Source: Mytilus trossulus
Taxonomy: Eukaryota
Direction: 5' to 3'
Assembly: GCF_036588685.1 (NCBI RefSeq)
Contig: NC_086382.1
Span: 496,001 to 560,000, forward strand
Length of the DNA stretch: 64,000 nucleotides
Each line of letters starts with the position of its first letter. The first letter of the stretch is position 1. A program made the position numbers and the translations under genes. The notes beneath the pieces were generated by a model that saw nothing but the letters and a program-made list of their open reading frames with translations, ran no database searches and was not told the DNA's origin. Positions 2,158 through 50,870 of the stretch are shown here, one piece after another.

Positions 2158-5058
2158 TTTTCCATTTGACTAGGACCATGTAGAACCCCTGATAAACAAT
2201 TCGCTGTAGAATAACATCGTCTGCCCTAGCCCTTTTCCATTTGACTAGAACCATGTAGAACCCCGATAAACATTTCGCTGTAGAATAACATCGTCTGCCC
2301 TAGCCCCTTTCCATTTGACTAGAACCATGTAGAACCCCCGATAAACAATTCGCTGTAGAATAACATCGTCTGCCCTAGCCCTTTTCCATTTGACTAGAAC
2401 CATGTAGAACCCCTGATAAACAATTCGCCGTAGAATAACATCGTCTGCCCTAACCCTTTTCTGTTTGACTAGGACCATGTAGAACCCCCGATAAACAATT
2501 CGCTGTAGAATAACATCGTCTGCCCTAGCCCTTTTCCATTTGACTATAACCATGTAGAACCCCCGATAAACAATTCGCTGTAGAATAACATCGTCTGCCC
2601 AAACCCTTTTCCATTTGACAAGAAACATGTAGAACCCCTGATAAACAATTCGCTGTAGAATAACATCGTCTGCCCTAGCCCTTTTCCATTTTACTAAAAC
2701 CATGTAGAACCCCTGATAAACAATTCGCTGTAGAATAACATCGTCTGCCCTAGCCCTTTTCCATTTGACTAGGACCATGTAGAACCCCCTATAAACAATT
2801 CGCTGTAGAATAACATCGTCTGCCCTAGCCCTTTTCCGTTTGACTAGGACCATGTAGAACCCCCGATAAACAATTCGCTGTAGAATAACATCGTCTGCCC
2901 TAGCCCTTTTCCATTTGACTAGGACCATGTAGAACCCCCGATAAACAATTCGCTGTAGAATAACATCGTCTGCCCTAGCCCTTTTCCATTTGACTAGAAC
3001 CATGTAGAACCCCCGATAAACAATTCGCTGTAGAATAACATCGTCTGCCCTAGCCCTTTTCCGTTTGACTAGGACCATGTAGAACCCCCGATAAACAATT
3101 CGCTGTAGAATAACATCGTCTGCCCTAGCCCTTTTTCATTTGACTAGAACCATGTAGAACCCCTGAAAAACAATTCGCTGTAGAATAACATCTTCTGCCC
3201 TAGCCCTTTTCCGTTTGACTAGGACCATGTAGAACCCCCGATAAACAATTCGCTGTAGAATAACATCGTCTGCCCTAGCCCTTTTCCATTTGACTAGGAC
3301 CATGTAGAACCCCCGATAAACAATTCGCTGTAGAATAACATCGTCTGCCCTAGCCCTTTTCCATTTGACTAGAACCATGTAGAACCCCCGATAAACAATT
3401 CGCTGTAGAATAACATCGTCTGCCCAAACCCTTTTCCATTTGACTAGGACCATGTAGAACCCCCGATAAACAATTCGCTGTAGAATAACATCGTCTGCCC
3501 TAGCCCTTTTCCATTTGACTAGGACCATGTAGAACCCCCGATAAACCATTCGCTGTAGAATAACATCGTCTGCCCTAGCCCTTTTCCGTTTGACTAGGAC
3601 CATGTAGAACCCCCGATAAACAATTCGCTGTAGAATAACATCGTCTGCCCTAACCCTTTTTCATTTGACTAGAACCATGTAGAACCCCTGAAAAACAATT
3701 CGCTGTAGAATAACATCTTCTGCCCTAGCCCTTTTCCGTTTGACTAGGACCATGTAGAACCCCCGATAAACAATTCGCTGTAGAATAACATCGTCTGCCC
3801 TAGCCCTTTTCCATTTGACTAGGACCATGTAGAACCCCCGATAAACAATTCGCTGTAGAATAACATCGTCTGCCCTAGCCCTTTTCCATTTGACTAGAAC
3901 CATGTAGAACCCCCGATAAACAATTCGCTGTAGAATAACATCGTCTGCCTAAACCCTTTTCCATTTGACTAGGACCATGTAGAACCCCCGATAAACAATT
4001 CGCTGTAGAATAACATCGTCTGCCCTAGCCCTTTTCCATTTGACTAGGACCATGTAGAACCCCCGATAAACAATTCGCTGTAGAATAACATCGTCTGCCC
4101 TAGCCCTTTTCCGTTTGACTAGGACCATGTAGAACCCCCGATAAACAATTCGCTGTAGAATAACATCGTCTGCCCTAGCCCTTTTTCATTTGACTAGAAC
4201 CATGTAGAACCCCTGAAAAACAATTCGCTGTAGAATAACATCTTCTGCCCTAGCCCTTTTCCGTTTGACTAGGACCATGTAGAACCCCCGATAAACAATT
4301 CGCTGTAGAATAACATCGTCTGCCCTAGCCCTTTTCCATTTGACTAGGACCATGTAGAACCCCCGATAAACAATTCGCTGTAGAATAACATCGTCTGCCC
4401 TAGCCCTTTTCCATTTGACTAGAACCATGTAGAACCCCCGATAAACAATTCGCCGTAGAATAACATCGTCTGCCCTAGCCCTTTTCCATTTGACTAGAAC
4501 CATGTAGAACCCCCGATAAACAATTCGCCGTAGAATAACATCGTCTGCCCTAGCCCTTTTCCATTTGACTAGAACCATGTAGAACCCCCGATAAACAATT
4601 CGCTGTAGAATAACATCGTCTGCCCAAACCCTTTTCCATTTGACTAGGACCATGTAGAACCCCCGATAAACAATTCGCTGTAGAATAACATCGTCTGCCC
4701 TAGCCCTTTTCCATTTGACTAGGACCATGTAGAACCCCCGATAAACAATTCGCTGTAGAATAACATCGTCTGCCCTAGCCCTTTTCCGTTTGACTAGGAC
4801 CATGTAGAACCCCCGATAAACAATTCGCTGTAGAATAACATCGTCTGCCCTAGCCCTTTTTCATTTGACTAGAACCATGTAGAACCCCTGAAAAACAATT
4901 CGCTGTAGAATAACATCTTCTGCCCTAGCCCTTTTCCGTTTGACTAGGACCATGTAGAACCCCCGATAAACAACTCGCTGTAGAATAACATCGTCTGCCC
5001 TAGCCCTTTTCCATTTGACTAGAACCATGTAGAACCCCCGATAAACAATTCGCTGTAG
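2158..5058. repeat. 75-bp satellite array, ~38-39 copies, with higher-order structure
   Basis: Monomer ccatttgactag(g/a)accatgtagaacccccgataaacaattcgctgtagaataacatcgtctgccctagccctttt is repeated with few substitutions. Confidence 0.97.
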
Positions 5059-13080: not shown

Positions 13081-14832
13081 CTAGACTATTGTCTCACTGT
13101 CTGCCTTTATATAACGTTTGCTTTTTTCTACCCGAATTGCCCTGTTTTGTTTAATTGGAATCTGTTGGTAATGATGTTGAGGAACATGATATTCGTACTG
13201 TTTTCGTTCAGGTTTTTTACTAATACATAATTTCCCAACGAAGTTCCTCCAGGAATTAATTGTTTTCGAAGACCATACCCACATACCACTGGTAATTCCC
13301 ACAACAAGCGACATAAATATTTTTAACATAAAAATTTCAATCTTTGGTAAATTTGTGGAATATTTCGAATACCACGAATCCCTGCTTGTGTATTCATAAA
13401 ATAAGCACGCTATGACACAAGCTGCTGGAACAGTATATAAGACGGAAAAGATTCCAATTCGGATCATTAGCACTTCTAGTTTATCTGTTTTAACTCCATC
13501 GTTTCGCACTTGTTTTCGGATTCTAAATAAAGCTACAAAACCAGCGACTAGGAAAGTTATTCCAATGAAGAGGTAGACTAGTAAAGGGGCAATAACAAAG
13601 CCCAGTAAAGTTCGGGTATTCTGATTCCCCACATAACAAACCCCAGTCAATTCATCAGCGTCTACATCACGCATCACTAATATAACAATTGTTTTAATGG
13701 CCGGAATGGCCCATGCCACTAAATGAAAGTAACTACTGTGAATTTGGATGGCCTCGTGACCCCACTTTAATCCTGCTGCCAGGAACCAAGTCAATGTTAG
13801 AATCACCCACCACAGCGAGGCGGCAGTACCGAAAAAGTATAATAATAAAAATACTATAGCACAGTCTGTATTTTCTAAGCCTTCTTGAATTAAAATTCCT
13901 AATCCATTTTGTGGACTTGTCACTGTTGGGTCTTTATCACATGCTATGGATTCTCTTCCTGCAATTAATCTTACTATAAATGCAATGCTGAAAATGTTAA
14001 AGCACATGGATAGAAAAATTATGGGTCTTTCTGGATAACGAAATCGATGTGTTTCAATGATGAATGTTAGCACTGTGAATAGAGTTGATACGAAACATAA
14101 TCCGGCCCAAATAGCCATCCAAATGTCTGCGAAATATTTGTCCTCGCTGCTGAATGCATCATGGTATCCACATTGCAGCGCACATCTGTCCGTTCGGTTT
14201 ATGTACGTGTACATTTCGGCGTGTCTATAATGCATACATTTTAAGCTACTGATTATATTCCAGTCCATAGGAATGGACGGTAGTTGAGTTGGGTACATTG
14301 GATTAGCACCAGGCTGGCCAGGCTTCGAATTTGACCCAGGCTTCGGTCTTCCAGGACGACGAGGTAATGGGTCATCTTCCTCCCCCGGACCGTCCATACA
14401 CATATGATTTTGATCGTTTTTAGGTGGAAATTTTGAGCAATTCAATGCCGCTGGCCACGGAAATCCAAATTCATTTAAAACTGGCCTACAACGTTTTTGA
14501 ACATTGGTACACATTGGTCTACACGGTCCAATTGGGTCCATGACTTTCTCTGTACACATTGGAACGTAAACAGAACACAAGAAAAACTTCAGTTGTTTAG
14601 AACACCCGTATTGTATCAGAGGGGTAAATGTCTGCAGTTGTAACTCGGCATCTTGTTGTAAATCGTGTCCTACAAGATTTGGCATACCCGTAACGTTATA
14701 TCCTAACCCTTTGCACATTTCTATTCGGATAGGGTCACATTTTCGGACTATTTCCGTACCAAACATATACAATCCTTTCGGCAGAAATAAACACATAAAG
14801 CTTGCCAACACTACACGTGTTGTCAATTCCAT
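13081..14832 (-). CDS. fzd4: Frizzled-4 (Wnt receptor), single coding exon, 583 aa
   Basis: ATG at 14832 ([17 protein letters not shown], signal-peptide-like). FZD4-type [49 protein letters not shown] with 10 Cys. Seven TM segments with [13 protein letters not shown], KTxxxW motif (KTINSW) and C-terminal PDZ ligand ETIV. Confidence 0.96.
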
Positions 14833-15170
14833 AGTAATTATAACTGGTAAATTACATAAGTTGCAATTAATAGTCTTTAATATTTTACTGATCACTTAAA
14901 TGCGAATTAAATCCACATAATATACACGACTTCTCCTCCCACCGCTGTTGGCATCAAGTAAATATTCCTGCATCTCTCAAGAGAATCGAGTTAGACATAG
15001 ATAATGTACCTTATCAACAAATCTTTCCTTCTCACGAATGCCATGTGAAATAATGTCTATCTTTCCTTCGTTGTTCTATTTAATCTGTGGATAAAATATC
15101 GTTTTAGCTTAGAAAAGAGTGCATGCCAGCGATCATGCCCTACTGGTGTTTGGTTTCACACAAACTCGAC

Positions 15171-19015: not shown

Positions 19016-19153
19016 AGCGGGACGGCTACAGTGCAGGCGATTTGGTGTCACGATATCACAGTAGCATGGGTTCGAATCCCGGCGAGGGAAGAACAAAAAA
19101 TTTGCGAAAGCAAATTTACAGATCTAACATTGTTGGGTTGATGTTTAGACGAG

Positions 19154-19155
<2 letters not shown>
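19016..19155 (+). mobile_element. tRNA-derived SINE-like fragment embedded in (TA)n
   Basis: Pol III B-box ggttcgaatcc at ~19069, with TA microsatellites on both sides. Confidence 0.55.
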
Positions 19156-19186
<31 letters not shown>

Positions 19187-19190
<4 letters not shown>

Positions 19191-20730
19191 CTGTACTGTA
19201 AACCTACAGATAAACATCAGTACCTTTCTCCCCAAAGCTGTCACCCCAAGCACTGTACAAAAAGTATCCCGTACAGTCAAGCTCTCAGAATAAAGCGGAT
19301 TCGGATTTGCTCCTCTGATGAGGCTGTCACTCAGCGGTTACAGGAACTTCGCGAATTTCTAATCAAACGAGGTTATAAGAAATGGGACATATATAAGGGG
19401 TTTGCGCGTGCTAACAATAACAGCCGCAAAGACCTGTTACAGTACAGAAAGAAGAGGCGCAGCAAAATTGTTCCATTTGTGTTAACATACAATCCCGCTT
19501 TTTCAAACCTTTCACGTTTGATCCGTGCCAATTGGCAAAGTATTGCCAATCACCCAAAATTATCCAAAATTTTTCCCGATCCTCCTGTCTTAGCTTTTCG
19601 GAGACCAGCAAGTCTAAAAGACTTATTTGTAAAAGCTGCCGTATCCTCGAATAAAAGCTGCTCAGCTACAGGATGGTGCAAGTCGTGTGGTAACAAACGA
19701 TGTCTGACTTGCCAACAAATAGTGAATACTCAAACATTTACTTGCCACTCCACTGGGTCTGTGTACACAATATTTTGTAATGTAACTTGCAAAACCCAGA
19801 ATGTTGTATACATTCTTCAGTGTCGATGTGGCATGCAGTATGTTGGCGAGACAGAACAGCCATTCAACAAACGCATGAATGGTCATCGTAGCGACTACAC
19901 ATGCAAGCCCGACCCACCCGTAAATCGTCATTTAAGATCACATGGGCACGCCCAAGCTGATCTTAAAAAACTTACCATCACTATCATAGATCACAACGAG
20001 GATTGGTCAAAGGCCGACAGACTTGCCCGGGAAAGTTTTTGGATAAGAAAGCTGAGGACAGTTTCCCCAGAGGGCATTAATGAAAAAACATAGAAGAGTC
20101 ACTCATTTTTCCTACCATCACTAATTTCCTGTCATCACTTGTGGCCAGTTACTACGGCTTCCGTACTGGACCCTTACACTTTTCAGGAATTTTTGAATTA
20201 TATTAGTTTTGATTACAGTTGGCAAGGATGTGTAAGTACGCAGCCACGTTCTATTACTTAACCTTAGTAAACATTTATTACTCAAATTTCTTATCATCAA
20301 ATTACTATATTTTTTAGATGTTTAAATACGCAGTCTCTGATGCAACTGCCCTACCGTTGTCATATTTTTAATATCATACCAGTTTAGATCGGTCAGGACT
20401 GTTTATTGGGACTATATTTCCACGCAGTTGTTTAACATCTCAACTGTCAACACCTTTGGGAATTTAGAGTTGTGCCTGTTCACATCGTAAATAACTTTTT
20501 TTATTTTTGGCATATTTTTGTAGTCTTTGCGCTGTGTTTGAAAATTTTAAAATTGTTCCAGCGTTCGCTTAAATTGTATAATTCAAGATTTTGATAGAGT
20601 CTTAATTTGAATTGACATGATTCATTTTTCATCGTGCAATTACCGAAGAAGGATATCTGTTATCCGAAATATCTAACATATTGTTCGTTTTATTGTGTTT
20701 TTGGTGATGTTGTATTCTTTTAGACTTGTT
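19187..20730 (+). mobile_element. 5'-truncated Penelope-like retroelement (RT thumb, Cys-rich linker, GIY-YIG endonuclease, 3' region), probably Neptune-type
   Basis: LYCKPTDKHQYL (frameshift) SCHPKHCTKSIPYSQALRIKRI...FLIKRGY runs in frame into ORF 19479-20093. That ORF has CKSCGNKRCLTC, NVVYILQCRCGMQYVGET, RMNGH, RESFWI and GIN. The element starts directly after (TA)n. Confidence 0.9.
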
Positions 20731-23861: not shown

Positions 23862-24613
23862 CTAAACACCTTTTGTTTTCATATCCCGAATAATTCCCTT
23901 TTCTGTCCTGAAAAACACGTTCAACAGAAGATTAAAGATATTTCCTACATTATCTGGACTTGGCTGTGCTAGCTGAGTAGATGCTGTTGTTATAGGCGTG
24001 GTAAGATTGGACTTCATTCTAGGCGTGGTAAGATTGGACTTCATTCTATGCGTGGTAAGATTGGACTTCATTCTAGGCGTGGTAAGATTGGACTTCATTC
24101 TAGGCGTGGTAAGATTGAACTTCGGAAAACGATGAATTATTCCTTGATCTAGGTCAACAGGATATTCCTCTTGATCAACAGGTCCTTTCACACAGTTACT
24201 CTCCTGATCATCACTGAGAGGAAATTTCGTGCATTCCAAAACTTCAGGCCACGGGAATCCGAATGTATTCAAAATAGGCCGGCAACCTTTCTGAACATCA
24301 AGACAAAGCGATCTGCATGGGCCGATGTTGTCATGGATTGATTCGTCACACTTCGGATAATATGCGGAACACAGAAATAGAATCAATTTACTTGAGCACC
24401 CGTACTGAATTAAAGGAGCATATGTTAGCAGGTTTAATTTAGCATCCTGAATGTTATCCTGTCCAGCAAAATTTGGCATGGTTGTCACGTTATAGTTCAC
24501 TGTTCTCGTACACATTCCTCTGGGAATATCTTGACATCTACGCACATGTTAGACATATCCATACAACATAGATATATTAAACTAAAAAATATTATATATC
24601 TCGTTAATTCCAG
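23862..24613 (-). pseudogene. fzd4-derived CRD-only (secreted frizzled-like) gene; disrupted allele or pseudogene
   Basis: ORF 23862-24545 holds a complete Frizzled CRD (10 Cys; [30 protein letters not shown]) and no 7TM region. Upstream, in another frame, CTG-E-L-T-R-Y-I-I-F-F-S-L-I-Y-L-C-C (from 24613) parallels fzd4 MELTTRVVL. One missing base near 24546 separates the two frames. Confidence 0.8.
23993..24120. repeat. 27-bp coding minisatellite x~4.7 encoding NLTTPRMKS
   Basis: taggcgtggtaagattggacttcattc at 23993, 24020, 24047, 24074 and 24101 (partial). Confidence 0.92.
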
Positions 24614-25146: not shown

Positions 25147-25976
25147 ATAGAAATTTATAATATGCATCGCAAAACACATAAGCCGGCCGGGCATCAAAAG
25201 GAAATTGATATTAAGCCTGCAAAAAATCATATTTCTCCCCTTCCCCCAAATAGACAATGAAATTGTCGTCATTTGTATTGTGTATGCAGAAAAAAAGTAA
25301 ACACAGATACATTTTGGAAGTCTTTTCCAAGGTACCAAATAAAAAGAACATAATGGTAGCTTTTAGCTACTAGTATTTAGATGCCGTAAAATGATAGCAG
25401 CTACATTTTTAAAAGCTCAACATTTGTATATTCTTTCCTTTTTACATCTGTCAATTTTATTTTCTTCACGTATTCGAATATTGCATCATCTTTAGCGATA
25501 AATGGCAATGATGTAGGTTTAAGGTATATTATTAGGTGTTTTGCATACAGTATAATTGTTTTGTCTTTTCTGTTTTTCGTTTTTTGCCAGGGGTTTGTCA
25601 GCCTCATTATCATTGGTCAGTTCTGGTTGTTTCTTTGACATCTGCTGGTTCTCTTGTATCTAATGCTGACAATGTATCTTATCTACGCTAAAATTAAGAC
25701 ATAACTCTTAATTTTAACCTCTTCCAGGGTAGCAAAACCTACGTTTTAGCAAAATGAACAATTTGAAATACTTCATCTCATATTTGTTTTCTCTCTCTCA
25801 ATAAACTAACAAACAATTTGAACTACGTTCATTGAATTAAATCTTTGGGGCATTGCTATCTCAGTCCACGGAACTATATCTTGGATTGATCGATGATCTG
25901 TAATGGGCATTTACAGTTTTTTGTATCGATATATTATCCTATTTTACTTTTAACATCTTATACGATTTGACAGTTC

Positions 25977-26694
25977 TGTGACAGTGGAAAAAGCAGCTTC
26001 GTTTAATATTTAGGACTTTAATATTTAATTCTCAATTTTGATATTTTAGTCATTAATTATCTGTGTTTTATTATCCATTATATTTTATAATATCATTTCT
26101 ATTTACATTTTGTATCCAGGACTTAAAATCAACATTCTTTAATATGCATTTAATTCTCAGTTTGGACATTAAGTGACATGTTTCAATCGGTTAGCTAATT
26201 AGTGACATTTTACCTTATTCATAATGTATATTCTTAATTGTCATTCAGTCAGGCTCTTGTTGCACGACCTCATAATCAGATTATCATTTAATATCTATTC
26301 TTCAAGTTCTAAAAATAGTTTAATCTTTGTCAGTGAACAATATCACTCAAATTAATTGTTATTTTGTTATGTCTATACTTGTCAATTCAATTGTGTATAA
26401 ATACTTGCTTATAATTTTTATAAGCAAGATTCGGACTCAGGACTTTACCCTGAACACAGTCCATCCGTAATAAAAGTATTAGTATTCCATGCTGAATTAT
26501 TGGTTTATTCATCGCTAGTTCCAGAGTCTCAGTAGTTAGTTTTCACCAGAGTTTCAGTGTCAGAGTTCTCATTGCTATTCACAGCAATCATTCGTTGTAT
26601 GATCAGGTGCATCACACAATTTCCGTAACAAGAGGCCATTCAGTCAGGCTCTTGTTGCACGACCTCACAAGTCACCCTTATTTCCCCGGTGACA
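25977..26694 (+). repeat. 5' LTR (718 bp)
   Basis: Identical by eye to 27710-28398 except for a 29-bp insertion. TATAAATA at 26396, AATAAA at 26469. Confidence 0.95.
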
Positions 26695-26801
26695 GATTGG
26701 TGGACGACGACGGCGTGCTGACTTCTATGCTCAGCACACGATCCAGAGACCTCAGGCAGCCAAGCGAGTTCCCAGACAAGTAGCGTAAACAATATTCAGT
26801 G

Positions 26802-27560
26802 ATGGAGTACAGCTTCCGACCACAATGGAGACCATGGAACATTCAGTCAGGTTACAGTCCAGCATGTGGGAGGTGTGGCAAATTTCACAAACATTATATT
26901 TGTAACTCTATCAATCAGAGATGTTATTCGTGCGGAAAATTCGGACATTATTCTAGAAAGTGTTTTTCTAAAGTTACAAAGGACAGCAAAAGTAAATCAG
27001 TTAGTGTGAAATCCAGAAAACAGAAAGAGCGCGATACAGCTAGGATAAACAGCTATATTCAGTGTAAAAATATTATCCGTGCTTTACCATTCTCTGGTAT
27101 GCGTAATTCACCGTTTATTCAATATTTGGATATTTCAAATGTGCTCAAAGCAGAATTAAAAAGTGTGAAACAGAAAATTACCAAGGAAAAGAATACAAAT
27201 CTACAACAGCAAAAGTGCATCGAGGCACTCAAAATTCAATTAAAGAATAAGCAAATCATCGTATCAGAAAGAGACCAGTTCAAGCAAGAACTTGAAAACC
27301 TGCGTCAACAGAAAGAAGAAAGTGCTTCGCGCATAAACGTACAAGAATATGTGGATCAAATTCAAGAATTAAAGGACCAAGTAATCGAAAAAGACGGGAC
27401 TGTTAAAATGGTGCAAGATCTTTACTATATGCGTTCGACCGAGTTTACAGATGAAATCCAATCATTGAAAAATGAAAAACAAGCTTTGGAAAAAGAAAAG
27501 GCAGACCTATGTTCAAAGGTAAATTTTCAAGCGGATTCTATTTCTCAATTAACTTTTTAA
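26802..27560 (+). CDS. LTR-element ORF: two zinc knuckles, basic region, long coiled coil (frame continues past the TAA to 27668)
   Basis: ATG at 26802. CGRCGKFHKHYIC and CYSCGKFGHYSRKC (CX2CX4HX4C). Heptad-like E/K/Q/L-rich C-terminal half. In-frame continuation LQDLNHELHLVSRQNQQRPNNNNRHYNNRRGGRFR*. Confidence 0.8.
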   Translation: MEYSFRPQWRPWNIQSGYSPACGRCGKFHKHYICNSINQRCYSCGKFGHYSRKCFSKVTKDSKSKSVSVKSRKQKERDTARINSYIQCKNIIRALPFSGMRNSPFIQYLDISNVLKAELKSVKQKITKEKNTNLQQQKCIEALKIQLKNKQIIVSERDQFKQELENLRQQKEESASRINVQEYVDQIQELKDQVIEKDGTVKMVQDLYYMRSTEFTDEIQSLKNEKQALEKEKADLCSKVNFQADSISQLTF

Positions 27561-27709
27561 CTTCAGGACCTTAACCATGAACTCCATCTTGTATCCCGCC
27601 AAAACCAACAGCGTCCCAATAACAACAACAGACACTATAACAACCGCAGAGGAGGCCGATTCAGATAGTGCTAAGTCCGAGGACGGACTTAATTGGGAGG
27701 AGAGGCATA

Positions 27710-28398
27710 TGTGACAGTGGAAAAAGCAGCTTCGTTTAATATTTAGGACTTTAATATTTAATTCTCAATTTTGATATTTTAGTCATTAATTATCTGTGTT
27801 TTATTATCCATTATATTTTATAATATCATTTCTATTTACATTTTGTATCCAGGACTTAAAATCAACATTCTTTAATATGCATTTAATTCTCAGTTTGGAC
27901 ATTAAGTGACATGTTTCAATCGGTTAGCTAATTAGTGACATTTTACCTTATTCATAATGTATATTCTTAATTGTCATAATCAGATTATCATTTAATATCT
28001 ATTCTTCAAGTTCTAAAAATAGTTTAATCTTTGTCAGTGAACAATATCACTCAAATTAATTGTTATTTTGTTATGTCTATACTTGTCAATTCAATTGTGT
28101 ATAAATACTTGCTTATAATTTTTATAAGCAAGATTCGGACTCAGGACTTTACCCTGAACACAGTCCATCCGTAATAAAAGTATTAGTATTCCATGCTGAA
28201 TTATTGGTTTATTCATCGCTAGTTCCAGAGTCTCAGTAGTTAGTTTTCACCAGAGTTTCAGTGTCAGAGTTCTCATTGCTATTCACAGCAATCATTCGTT
28301 GTATGATCAGGTGCATCACACAATTTCCGTAACAAGAGGCCATTCAGTCAGGCTCTTGTTGCACGACCTCACAAGTCACCCTTATTTCCCCGGTGACA
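27710..28398 (+). repeat. 3' LTR (689 bp)
   Basis: Begins tgtgacagtgg after the PPT, ends cccggtgaca, followed by TSD gttc. Confidence 0.95.
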
Positions 28399-29769
28399 GT
28401 TCCCAGAAGTAGTAAAATTATTGATGATCTGGATGGCGGATTTTCATTTTTGTATTTTGTATTTTAGGCCTATTTTTTTCTTATATCTTTAATTATTTTG
28501 CCCATTATTTCCTATTTTTTTAATACTATAGTAACAAAATTTGCGCTTTTCTATAGTCTTTCTTTGTTTGGCTCTTTATTCTATAGTCTTAATCCGATTT
28601 TTCTTTTCGGTACCCCCCCCCCCTCTCCCCCACCCACAGACCCTCTTTGAACGAAAGGGAAATATAGAGCTTTTAAACTGTAATAATTCCATGACATAAC
28701 TGGTTGTTATAGTTTAAGCAAAGTTATGACTTTTTCCCTGCATTCACCCGTTTTTATTGTGTGTTTTTTGTTGTTGTTTGCTCCAAGTCAAGTTGCAATG
28801 CATTTACAAAAGAGATTGATTGTTTTATTTCGAATACTATTTCTCAATGAATATCAAAGTTAAGAGGGGTTAAAATGGAAACACAGACTTATCCTTTTTT
28901 TATACAAAATTATGAGCATACATTTTGTAAAGATATACTAGAATTTGGTTTCAGTCAGAGAAGATTTGATGAGTGTATGTGCATTGGTTGGTGGGAACCT
29001 ATGAAAGCAGAAACTGAAAGTAATGAATCGAGAACACAATCATTACATGGATATAACTACTTCAGGTTAAAAATGTATATAACGCATTAATAATTTTCCA
29101 TAACGATATCTACTTCTAACTCTTCTAGATATGCTGTTACCAACTGTATGTATTTATAGAAATAAATATTTAATTGCATTTCGTAAAAATATTCATTGGA
29201 AGATACCAAGACCCTGTTGATAAACATTCCGTATCAACTTCACAAATAATACACGATGGTCTTGAAGTTCTGAGTTGTTTATCAATTCAATAAAGTTTTA
29301 TAGCATTCTTTTATTGTCATTTTGAATATTACTTCTAATGTCTAGTGTATTATTTGTGAAATCCGTTTGACGTGGCTCGGTACTTGTATATCCCATTATT
29401 TTTTTATTGTGCTATCATGGTTAGTTTTTGTATTTTTGTCTTTTTGAGATTTTTTGTTACATAATTTTTTGTTTTTATAGTGATTAAAATTATAACAGAA
29501 TGTTGACTGTTGTACCTCTAATTTGACATTTTTTGACGTATTATGTCTTCTACATAAGAAATGCATGCACTAAGTCAGGAGTTGTTAATAATTTGTTTGA
29601 TGTGTTAGATCTTTTAATTTTACAACTAGTATGTACTTTCCGTTTTGAATTTTCTGATTTTACTTTTTGCATGAAATTGGTTGAATAATATTGCAGACAC
29701 AAAAGCTTTATGGAACAATTTAAAGATATGACAGGACAAGACAAATACATGTATGCCTAGTATTTCGAA

Positions 29770-49734: not shown

Positions 49735-50870
49735 CCAACGTCAGTACGCAAAATCTATAAATTCAAGACCATCTTGTATTATTTGTGAAGTTGGTACGGA
49801 ATATTTATCAATAAGTTCTGGGTATCTTCCGATGAACTTTTTTAGAAAAAGGACGAGACGTTCTATGACATACCCCTGATTCATCAACTTTCTGCTCAGA
49901 CACTGGTGACGTTTTACAAAGTCTGAGTAGGCGCTGCAAGCTCTTTAATACCCAATAAGTTGGGAAATGTATATTCCATATACAGGTGAAGTTGGTATAT
50001 TACTTCTAAGGTGGTGATAATTTCAAAATTAAAATCGTCTTGTTTGTCATAGATTCTGGTACTGACATGACTGTGTATGTCAAATTCGAATTATAAGTCT
50101 AAAAATGAGGCGGAGGAAGCCGTGTCTGTGGTCTCTTTGATTTCTAGTTCTGGTGGGTATATTAATGGAACCCAATCAGAAAAGTTCGGATTGTTGATGG
50201 AAAGAACATCATCAATATATCTGAAAGTAAAATTAAATAACCTGGCTTCTTTGATCTTCTTGTTTTTGACAAGTGTCTGAAGGAACTCCGATTCATATGA
50301 AAATAAGAAGAGGCGGACAGTTCGTTCCCATAGGAATGTCGACAATTTGTTGAAAAAGTCTACCTCCAAATTCAACTAATATGTTGTCAATCAGAAACCC
50401 CAGCATACTGATTACTTGCTCCTCTGTGTAGTATGTTTTACCCTTTTGTTCCTTATTAACAAAATATGCCTTATGGTATCCCAAAGTGATAAATTTATAG
50501 CGTATTATACCATTTTTATGATGAAAAGCATTGTGGATTATTTCTGTTAGACGGTTTTTCAATTTTACATGGGGAATGGTAGTATTCAAGTTTGAAGAAT
50601 CAAAAGTTTTAATAGAACTAATTTCAGAAAAAGACCGAGATTTAAAATTATCCAGAAGTTCTTTAGAGTTTTTAAGAATCCACAAACTGTTAATACCACT
50701 ACGCGAGTAAACAGTTTCACAGCATATCTGAAGACCCTCTTTAATTGCGGACAGAATTTTAGTCAATCTAATGGACAATTCTTTAGTAGAACAAACAGTT
50801 GAGCCGGCAATGTATCGCTGTTTGTACGGAATTTTGTGAAGTTAAGGTATCCAATACAAACAAGGTAAGA
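49735..50870 (-). mobile_element. Degenerate Penelope-like reverse transcriptase fragment
   Basis: IKTFDSSNLNTTIPH, FLIDNILVEFGGRLFQQIVDIPMGTNC, LFLFSYESEF, FRYIDDVLSINN and ASFLDL, interrupted by frameshifts. Confidence 0.85.

Follow-up and report, generated by a model that had tools for sequence, protein, structure and literature searches.

The LTR element at positions 25977-28398 of the window, the 64,000-nt stretch of Mytilus trossulus contig NC_086382.1 analysed here (positions 496,001 to 560,000), belongs to a large lineage of capsid-less coding satellite LTR retrotransposons that appears to be undescribed. This lineage keeps the zinc knuckles of a nucleocapsid, has no detectable capsid, and adds a long predicted coiled coil, in a protein that is under purifying selection. 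Copies of the element, more distant families in the same genome, related proteins from other bivalves, and chimeras with Gypsy elements all bear on how such an element could be mobilised.

Structure of the Element

With both LTRs running TG...CA, the whole element measures 2,422 bp, and all the cis-acting parts that were listed in the initial annotation (PBS, PPT, 4-bp TSD, and a 1,015-bp interior) were found again where they had been placed (Table 1). The LTR pair had been judged by eye to be identical apart from one indel. This is accurate, since 0 substitutions occur over 688-689 aligned columns and the sole difference is a 29-bp insertion, the U5 source of which lies 395 bp further downstream in the 5′ LTR. 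The window copy is a very young, fresh insertion. Because it is 2,422 bp long and carries an ORF with a dN/dS of about 0.2, the element is not a TRIM.

Table 1. Features of the LTR element, in positions of the window.
Feature	Position	Strand	Remarks
Left TSD, GTTC	25973..25976	+	
5′ LTR, 718 bp, TGTGACAG...CCGGTGACA	25977..26694	+	
29-bp insertion, 5′ LTR only	26241..26269	+	templated copy of a U5 stretch near 26637-26670
TATA-like TATAAATA	26396, 5′ LTR	+	putative promoter
AATAAA	26469, 5′ LTR	+	putative poly(A) signal
Interior, 1,015 bp	26695-27709	+	
Degenerate PBS after 3-nt spacer	26698..26716	+	14/19 against the 3′ end of a 61-copy tRNA-like gene
Leader stem-loop	26715..26737	+	conserved in seven aligned families; candidate packaging or dimerisation signal
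Leader motif GCAGCCAAGCGAGT	26756..26769	+	
Single ORF, 288 codons, ATG 26802 to TAG 27668	26802..27668	+	broken by an in-frame TAA in the window copy
Two zinc knuckles	26865..26963	+	CX2CX3HX4C, residues 22-34; CX2CX4HX4C, residues 41-54; homologous to Gypsy Gag nucleocapsid
Basic patch and conserved RDxxR...PF helical segment, residues ~70-108	27009..27125	+	no Pfam family
Long helix, modelled parallel self-associating coiled coil, residues 108-251	27123..27554	+	
N/R/G-rich tail	27597..27665	+	3′ of the premature stop in the window copy; translated in open copies
PPT GGGAGGAGAGG (27695-27705), then 4-nt spacer	27695..27709	+	
3′ LTR, 689 bp	27710..28398	+	
Right TSD, GTTC	28399..28402	+	

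Copies, Mobility, and Selection

Searches of the 1.3 Gb host assembly yielded 37 matches to the interior, 26 of them full length, at 18 loci that include three tandem arrays with shared LTRs. A matching 4-bp TSD flanks seven of 11 single full copies, six of eight solo LTRs, and one of the two arrays examined, and the TSD sequences of single copies and solo LTRs all differ, save one repeat. The first check proposed in the initial annotation, a genome-wide search for copies with different TSDs, thus had a positive outcome, and the window family transposes as an LTR-PBS-ORF-PPT-LTR unit with 4-bp TSDs.

The claim that one reading frame fills the interior is correct for most of the family and incorrect for the copy from which it was made. 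From a common ATG, the ORF is open for 282-288 codons in 19 of the 26 full-length copies; it is broken in the other seven, among them the window copy, in which a TAA at codon 253 (27558-27560) leaves a protein of 252 aa and removes the N/R/G tail. Selection among copies, also proposed for study, was measured by pairwise NG86 comparison of 12 copies, all with an open ORF and each array represented once; it gave a dN/dS of 0.205 over 66 non-independent pairs, with a mean dS of 0.21 and dN of 0.043. The value is similar along the protein, at 0.19 for residues 1-110 and 0.22 for residues 111-288. The ORF is under purifying selection.

Read data are compatible with transcription of the window family, though not strongly indicative of it. 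Contigs of one run that is recorded as RNA include the LTR-PBS joint and a 755-nt portion of the ORF; a second run, taken to be RNA by guess only, shows depth over the interior and R-U5 and lower depth over U3. Two raw RNA runs of unstated tissue, about 6% of which was read, contributed 48 and 30 reads, many of them partly aligned.

The Encoded Protein

The order of domains in the protein is the one originally described, with N-terminal knuckles followed by a basic patch, a coiled coil, and an N/R/G tail, the last lying past the stop in the window copy. Two structure models (mean pLDDT 77 and 88) contain the knuckles, helices at residues ~72-94 and 102-108, and a single helix from residue 111 on. 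In the model with a pLDDT of 88, residues 111-251 form one helix, with no space for a capsid bundle. As modelled, the coiled coil comprises ~140 residues, about half of the protein.

Among 40 members, Pfam assigned zf-CCHC to 23; its other assignments were scattered coiled-coil families, with no capsid family of the Retrotrans_gag/UBN2 type among the 25 of 44 Pfam families listed for these 40 members; Retrotrans_gag was weakly detected by Pfam in two Gags of the same genome (L113 and L130). Profile comparison with two Gags aligned the knuckle pair alone, with probabilities of 93 and 96%, and BLAST of five Gags against 77 members of the lineage gave matches confined to the C-terminal knuckle regions of the Gags. 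Foldseek against the PDB returned 0 matches at E ≤ 0.001, and a fold search of BFVD also returned 0, with weak hits at the level of the knuckles only. Generic coiled coils were all that a VIA-wide fold search produced (best Z 8.4, rmsd 7.4, 143 aligned), residues before 67 being barely covered, and a single match of 0.77, without an assigned family, came from the ESM Atlas. The capsid fold for which a search had been advised was therefore seen neither by Pfam, profile, or fold searches nor in the models, and the protein has no detectable capsid. Its initial description as non-Gag-like stands in part: no capsid was detected and by these sequence comparisons most of the protein is unrelated to Gag, but its two knuckles share homology with those in the nucleocapsid of Gypsy Gags from this genome, so that the N-terminus is a Gypsy nucleocapsid module.

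Modelled as two copies, residues 15-252 scored 0.44, against 0.00 for the best of three controls, and formed a parallel coiled coil across residues 108-251, with a contact agreement between runs of at least 89% and a pLDDT of at least 70. Among microbes, 21 of 30 solved homo-pairs reached the mark set for this score, against 0 of 23 single chains; the corresponding counts for eukaryotes are 17 of 29 homo-pairs (seven of 16 from animals) and 0 of 30 single chains. Coiled coils may reach the mark by likeness. According to this model, the ORF protein probably self-associates as a coiled coil. The proposal of an oligomeric, putatively RNA-binding protein is thus strengthened by the two-copy model and the knuckles, and the dN/dS of about 0.2 shows that the protein is selected.

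Sister Families and Relatives in Other Bivalves

The protein search of the genome gave 121 matches, with 150 of 247 candidates scored, and 34 diverged short-ORF loci as well as six long-ORF loci were retrieved. In all 22 tabulated short-ORF loci, which were selected for a visible repeat pair, LTRs of 349-856 bp surround interiors of 974-1,202 bp. At least 10 sister families, grouped by eye on ORF and LTR, have 19-36% protein identity to the window family, and the pol-less size and layout is common to at least 11 families, the window family included. Nine sister-family pairs gave dN/dS values of 0.27-0.51. A tblastn search with two Pol proteins found pol at only three of 64 loci, each of them a chimera.

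A knuckle followed by RDxxR...PF is present in 77 of the best 150 representative matches from a protein library clustered at 50%. The 77 members range from 101 to 376 aa (median 282); the knuckle lies within the first 100 residues in 73 of them, and RG or GR occurs within the last 30 residues in 34 of the 55 members of at least 240 aa. Coiled-coil and tail sequences diverge fast between families. Relatives with a named source make up four of the 30 clusters examined, from Pinctada imbricata (two clusters of five near-identical proteins), Tegillarca granosa, and Mytilus coruscus. The protein relatives span three bivalve orders and are known from proteins alone outside the M. trossulus assembly. 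In our best reading the window element comes from an old lineage of many families, and a set of bivalve hypothetical genes labelled ‘CCHC-type domain-containing’ gains an identity.

These families also bear on a more ordinary explanation, according to which the element arose by internal deletion from a full-length element that has the same LTRs and has escaped detection, its ORF being a piece of that element's gag or an accessory ORF. The knuckles are indeed Gag-like, one locus (L043) has a window-family LTR and ORF upstream of gag-pol sequence, and the searches scored part of their candidates (40 of 166 in the LTR search, and the portion of the protein candidates given above). However, each of the 28 junctions with the exact LTR-end/PBS pattern led back to the small interior, to one of its tandem arrays, or to an aberrant product, and no long element bounded by two window-family LTRs was present at the loci read from them. 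Unlike LTRs, the lack of a TSD, and a joint leading into mid-gag led to the rejection of L043 as an autonomous parent. The size and layout recur from family to family, the match to Gag is limited to the knuckles, and a search among longer proteins, itself a weak test, revealed no gag-pol fusion, only one Mytilus gene-model fusion and four coiled-coil-family matches. Within the candidates scored, the internal-deletion reading is largely refuted for the M. trossulus genome, and we give it very little credence. The narrower counter-case named in the initial annotation, a one-off internal deletion, is contradicted: the 18 loci with different TSDs, the dN/dS of about 0.2, and the at least 10 pol-less sister families mean that the window element is not a one-off deletion.

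Primer and Leader

The primer candidate is a tRNA-like 3′ end found in 61 gene copies, the gene being presumably tRNA-Ala(AGC), on which ARAGORN made no call, with the anticodon half outside the sequence used. The PBS matches this 3′ end at 14 of 19 positions in the window element, at 18 of 19 in a sister element (L093), and at 19 of 19 in a pol-only Gypsy copy (L148). Genes for tRNA-Ala(CGC/TGC) were tried as the source of the primer and rejected for their poorer fit to the PBS. At another locus (L032), two window-family LTRs stand head to head around an 18/19 copy of the tRNA 3′ end, an insert which we infer to be what plus-strand strong-stop DNA would leave; its reading as the PBS of another family was rejected, a copy of the primer tRNA end being the better fit. 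Judged by PBS complementarity, the window family is primed by the same tRNA as Gypsy elements of the genome.

Conservation of the predicted stem-loop that follows the PBS receives modest support from the alignment of seven families, in which two of nine predicted pairs show a change on both sides, each in one sequence. The 12-nt core of the leader motif recurs with at most one mismatch in a sister family and in the leaders of two gag-pol Gypsy elements (L161 and L163). Against part of the tRNA (anticodon half left out), the best pairing run of the motif was no better than that of shuffles (314/500).

Gypsy Partners and Chimeras

Family G-A, a pol-only Gypsy, is represented by six full copies with LTR pairs 99.0-99.9% identical. 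In seven of seven copies, 703-712 nt separate its protease site from the LTR end, and the preceding ATG-ORFs are all of 23 aa or less; one copy (L143) contains a single 1,629-codon PR-RT-RH-IN frame and no second frame of more than 110 codons. G-A is a young, gag-less, pol-retaining, recently mobile Gypsy family. Six upstream stretches of its relatives were read (5′ regions only, one copy each). Three have a Gag. The other three, with 53, 42, and 36% identity to G-A, are gag-less, so that gag is missing at the 5′ end even in the two closest of the relatives examined. Owing to these three further gag-less starts, gag loss among these Gypsy families is old or recurrent. The gag-less, pol-only families are absent from the initial annotation, as are the stop codon of the window copy and the Gag-nucleocapsid origin of the knuckles.

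The check for an autonomous element with common ends, which the annotation had called for, yielded no single helper with the LTR body of the window family. The tRNA primer is shared, as are the LTR end and spacer GGTGACAGAT of G-A, but no LTR body is, comparison of the window LTR with four Gypsy LTRs having shown no similarity beyond chance. The non-coding deletion derivatives of G-A (L149-L153, L157, and L158), with interiors of 1.4 kb, are young and mobile. They move without any protein, and a self-made adaptor is therefore not required for trans-mobilisation here.

Mobility of such non-coding elements favours a role of the satellite protein outside RNA loading. It could be a family-specific protector against silencing or decay, or a competitor that sequesters helper Gag or RNA, while the RNA itself would be packaged passively like that of a TRIM. 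Selection on the ORF would then be accounted for without a docking role, and the fast divergence of coiled coil and tail between families would also fit. Against this stand the derivation of the knuckles from Gag nucleocapsid and the retention of two knuckles and RDxxR...PF in 77 of the best 150 matches, for which a fixed structural job is a better fit than an arms race, and we consider such a role improbable.

Four chimeras join satellite and Gypsy sequence, two with pol-only partners (L047+L122 and L099+L156) and two with gag-pol partners (L043+L121 and L049+L123). In L043+L121, a window-family LTR and most of the ORF are joined to mid-gag and pol; L049+L123 contains an inverted joint with the pol of a gag-stop-pol family (L130); and in L047+L122 a window-family LTR is followed directly by the PBS and interior of G-A. 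The order in L099+L156 is G-A LTR, sister-element interior with ORF, sister LTR, G-A interior (deleted), and G-A LTR. Flanked by the TSD TACA and with outer LTRs that mismatch at 2 of 884 sites, this chimera integrated as a single unit. Its two joints each carry a tRNA-matching PBS, whereas the PBS of the sister family itself is degenerate, an argument weakened by the presence of tRNA-matching PBSs in some G-A copies anyway. L099+L156 is most simply explained by crossed plus-strand transfer within one complex, with DNA recombination followed by transposition as a possible alternative, and the satellite-Gypsy chimeras could have arisen by DNA-level microhomology recombination. Since two are pol-only and two gag-pol, the four chimeras tie the satellite to both kinds of Gypsy. 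About a quarter of the 95 pol matches in the genome may be pol-only (judged on open-frame clusters, with one copy checked per cluster besides G-A), so two of four pol-only chimeras represent no enrichment. The initial view that Gypsy-type enzymes mobilise a pol-less element in trans is supported by the chimeras, the 4-bp TSDs, and the common tRNA primer.

The same material could point to a bipartite, capsid-free system, in which the knuckle/coiled-coil protein would replace Gag as a ribonucleoprotein scaffold, in the manner of LINE-1 ORF1p, and a pol-only Gypsy would give protease, RT, RNase H, and integrase. Each partner is without what the other has, with G-A young and gag-less and three further gag-less starts beside it; G-A and the window family have the LTR end and spacer GGTGACAGAT in common; and a TSD-flanked heterodimer such as L099+L156 is what crossed plus-strand transfers in one complex would give. 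Nevertheless, the other two chimeras have capsid-bearing gag-pol partners, leaving the pol-only ones unenriched, and the leader motif is common to gag-pol and not to pol-only leaders. To our knowledge, no LTR retrotransposon is free of a capsid. Furthermore, BARE-2, as presented in the available part of PMC4350172, is a gag-less element that simply borrows a normal Gag. We regard the bipartite system as a bold and rather unlikely reading.

Proposed Mechanism

The best reading, to which we assign a probability of a little under one half, is a protein-coding non-autonomous satellite LTR retrotransposon with a cis-acting RNA-loading protein, which shares complexes with Gypsy RNAs and obtains its capsid from gag-pol elements. 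The protein would mainly help the RNA that encodes it, as suggested by selection on the ORF of the mobile copy itself. Knuckles, basic patch, and RG tail may bind the element RNA and, like nucleocapsids, could also anneal the tRNA. This binding would be rendered multivalent by the coiled coil, and the RDxxR...PF segment may serve as a docking surface. RNA coated in this way would enter replication complexes common to Gypsy RNAs. Gag-pol elements would furnish the capsid, while either these or the gag-less, pol-only Gypsy families could furnish the enzymes, which would result in a three-party pool of satellite, pol-only, and gag-pol elements. As far as we know, a capsid particle is used by all LTR retrotransposons studied mechanistically.

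Comparison with Known Systems

We know of no coding non-autonomous LTR element that has not retained a capsid. Compared here on the basis of parts of the cited papers, TR-GAG from plants (PMC4350172) and RLG_Quinta from wheat (PMC11302176) are short LTR elements that lack pol, have a PBS, a PPT, and a single ORF, and depend for movement in trans on a partner with the same LTR termini and PBS. Their ORF encodes a capsid-bearing Gag (Retrotrans_gag or UBN2), whereas the mussel ORF has N-terminal knuckles, a coiled-coil half, and no detected capsid. The available portion of PMC12067270 describes zebrafish BHIKHARI/Bik-1 as a young pol-less LTR element whose single ORF likewise contains a coiled coil and a C-terminal glycine-rich patch, but it encodes a lokiretroviral Gag of 617 aa that includes a capsid domain, in contrast to the ~288-aa, knuckle-bearing, capsid-less mussel protein. 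A single ORF without pol is thus common to the mussel element and to the Gag-only elements TR-GAG, Quinta, and Bik-1; the mussel element works like a Gag-only non-autonomous element, yet it is without the capsid that such elements have.

Among animal elements, xretpos combines a leucine zipper with a CCHC motif. The Xenopus pol-less elements treated in the accessible text of PMC4585706 are also LTR elements of an animal that occur in many copies and have one ORF but no homology to pol, and one of them, 1a11, encodes a 71-kDa Gag-like protein, the likeness to the mussel elements being by description only. The same text assumes that the Xenopus elements have lost mobility, while in the mussel families the LTRs are near-identical and TSDs are present. 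TRIMs, including biv-TRIM (PMC6934838) and Helenus (PMC10886601) in the excerpts used, resemble the window family as non-autonomous elements with solo LTRs and shared-LTR tandem arrays in bivalves, and animal Helenus makes 4-bp TSDs; TRIMs are, however, defined as non-coding and shorter than ~1 kb, and the mussel element has 2.4 kb and a selected ORF.

The gag-less partners have a model as well, with the difference that several gag-less Gypsy families (36-53% identity) here stand beside capsid-less satellites, with no close gag-bearing parent seen. That model, BARE-2, is a Copia element with a Gag borrowed from its close relative BARE-1. As described in PMC4350172, barley BARE-2 is gag-less and pol-bearing, as are G-A and its gag-less relatives, and there it is speculated that TR-GAG Gags could mobilise BARE-2-like gag-less elements; some fish Gypsy families were scored without gag in the section available of PMC11117352. 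The accessible portions of a mollusc LTR survey (PMC6238403) make no mention of ‘non-autonomous’, ‘PBS’, or ‘zinc’, and those of an article on bivalve TEs (PMC10294476) none of ‘gag’. No description of the present elements was found in the open papers searched, and subscription journals, Repbase, Dfam, or supplements could contain entries on these families or on gag-less Gypsy elements of molluscs. The ‘undescribed element class’ of the initial annotation is a plausible designation, but there are precedents both for LTR elements with one ORF and no pol and for elements without gag.

No homology to LINE-1 ORF1p was found, and no RRM is among the 25 of 44 Pfam families listed; the mussel protein was modelled as two copies only. 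ORF1p is a trimeric protein of a non-LTR element, with an RRM and a CTD. As a comparison of working principle only, it provides in the part of PMC5940361 consulted the example of a capsid-free coiled-coil oligomer that packages retroelement RNA. At minimum, the mussel lineage would represent a novel strategy by which a satellite ensures that it is packaged. Were the doubtful bipartite reading true, it would be a naturally split bivalve LTR system, in which satellite scaffold and gag-less Gypsy enzymes are reverse-transcribed together and of which L099+L156 is the record. Taken with the old Gypsy families that lack gag and with the fossil heterodimer, the lineage makes it testable whether an LTR retrotransposon can replicate capsid-free, its gag and pol functions split between elements.

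Copies and Protein Relatives of the Satellite Element

Aside from solitary insertions, copies of the window family occur within another element and in arrays. One (L097) lies nested in an element of a sister family, inside its 3′ LTR, and the start of contig C45 cuts into a tandem array (L018-L023, L029) whose units, seven or more and almost identical, share LTRs. At the protein level, a distant branch of the family (P0081, P0141, P0148, P0153, P0168) carries additional knuckles at the C-terminus, and four Mytilus gene models (P0022, P0235, P0236, P0238) join the element ORF to tetraspanin, MFS, or LRR sequences; these fusions are probably annotation artefacts or cases of exonisation.

Within the window, a Frizzled-CRD-like frame, listed below with the other features, has the satellite element about 1.4 kb upstream. 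Elsewhere in the genome, genes for tRNA-Ala(CGC), tRNA-Ala(TGC), and tRNA-Glu(CTC) form a long tandem array (L135-L142) with a unit of ~1.3 kb.

Features of the window and of gag-pol Gypsy or chimeric loci
Feature	Location	Strand	Remark
75-bp satellite	window 2158-5058		38.7 copies, 95% matches
Frizzled-like gene, intronless	window 13081-14895	-	named by eye
Penelope-type-like GIY-YIG and RT fragments	window 19149-20093; 50293-50841	+; -	likeness by eye
Frizzled-CRD-like frame	window 23862-24548	-	interrupted by 27-bp repeat; named by eye
Gypsy families with gag-pol stop codon	L130:1908-7268; L128; L043; L164		
Gypsy Gag region without zinc knuckle	L163:227-1129		
Inverted or head-to-head LTR-start pieces	L123:2769-2826; L128; L129; L049; L043/L121		

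Gag-pol Gypsy Families

In the gag-pol Gypsy families at four loci, gag and pol share a reading frame, with just one stop codon, possibly read through, between them. The Gag region of a further gag-pol Gypsy (L163) has no zinc knuckle, and this element may serve as a capsid-only partner for a knuckle-bearing satellite. In the gag-stop-pol family of L130 and in a sister family, the initial ~50 bp of the LTR sequence (TGTTATA...TATAACA) often form a terminal piece that is inverted or placed head to head, as if integration had gone astray through an internal mimic of the element's end.

Gag-less Gypsy Families and Their Non-coding Derivatives

Several Gypsy families, young or diverged, encode pol only and lack gag (L143-L148, L155, L159, L160, L162), a result that stands apart from the satellite element. 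A basic N-terminal extension, 'GWCC..C', shared by the young family G-A and L159, precedes their protease. The leaders of L160 and L162 each contain GGTGAGT, which resembles a splice donor. G-A has also given rise to derivatives without coding capacity (L149-L153, L157, L158), some in tandem arrangement, in which LTRs of about 1.0-1.05 kb, 99-100% identical within pairs, flank an interior of about 1.4 kb. These derivatives are LARD/TRIM-like parasites of a gag-less element.
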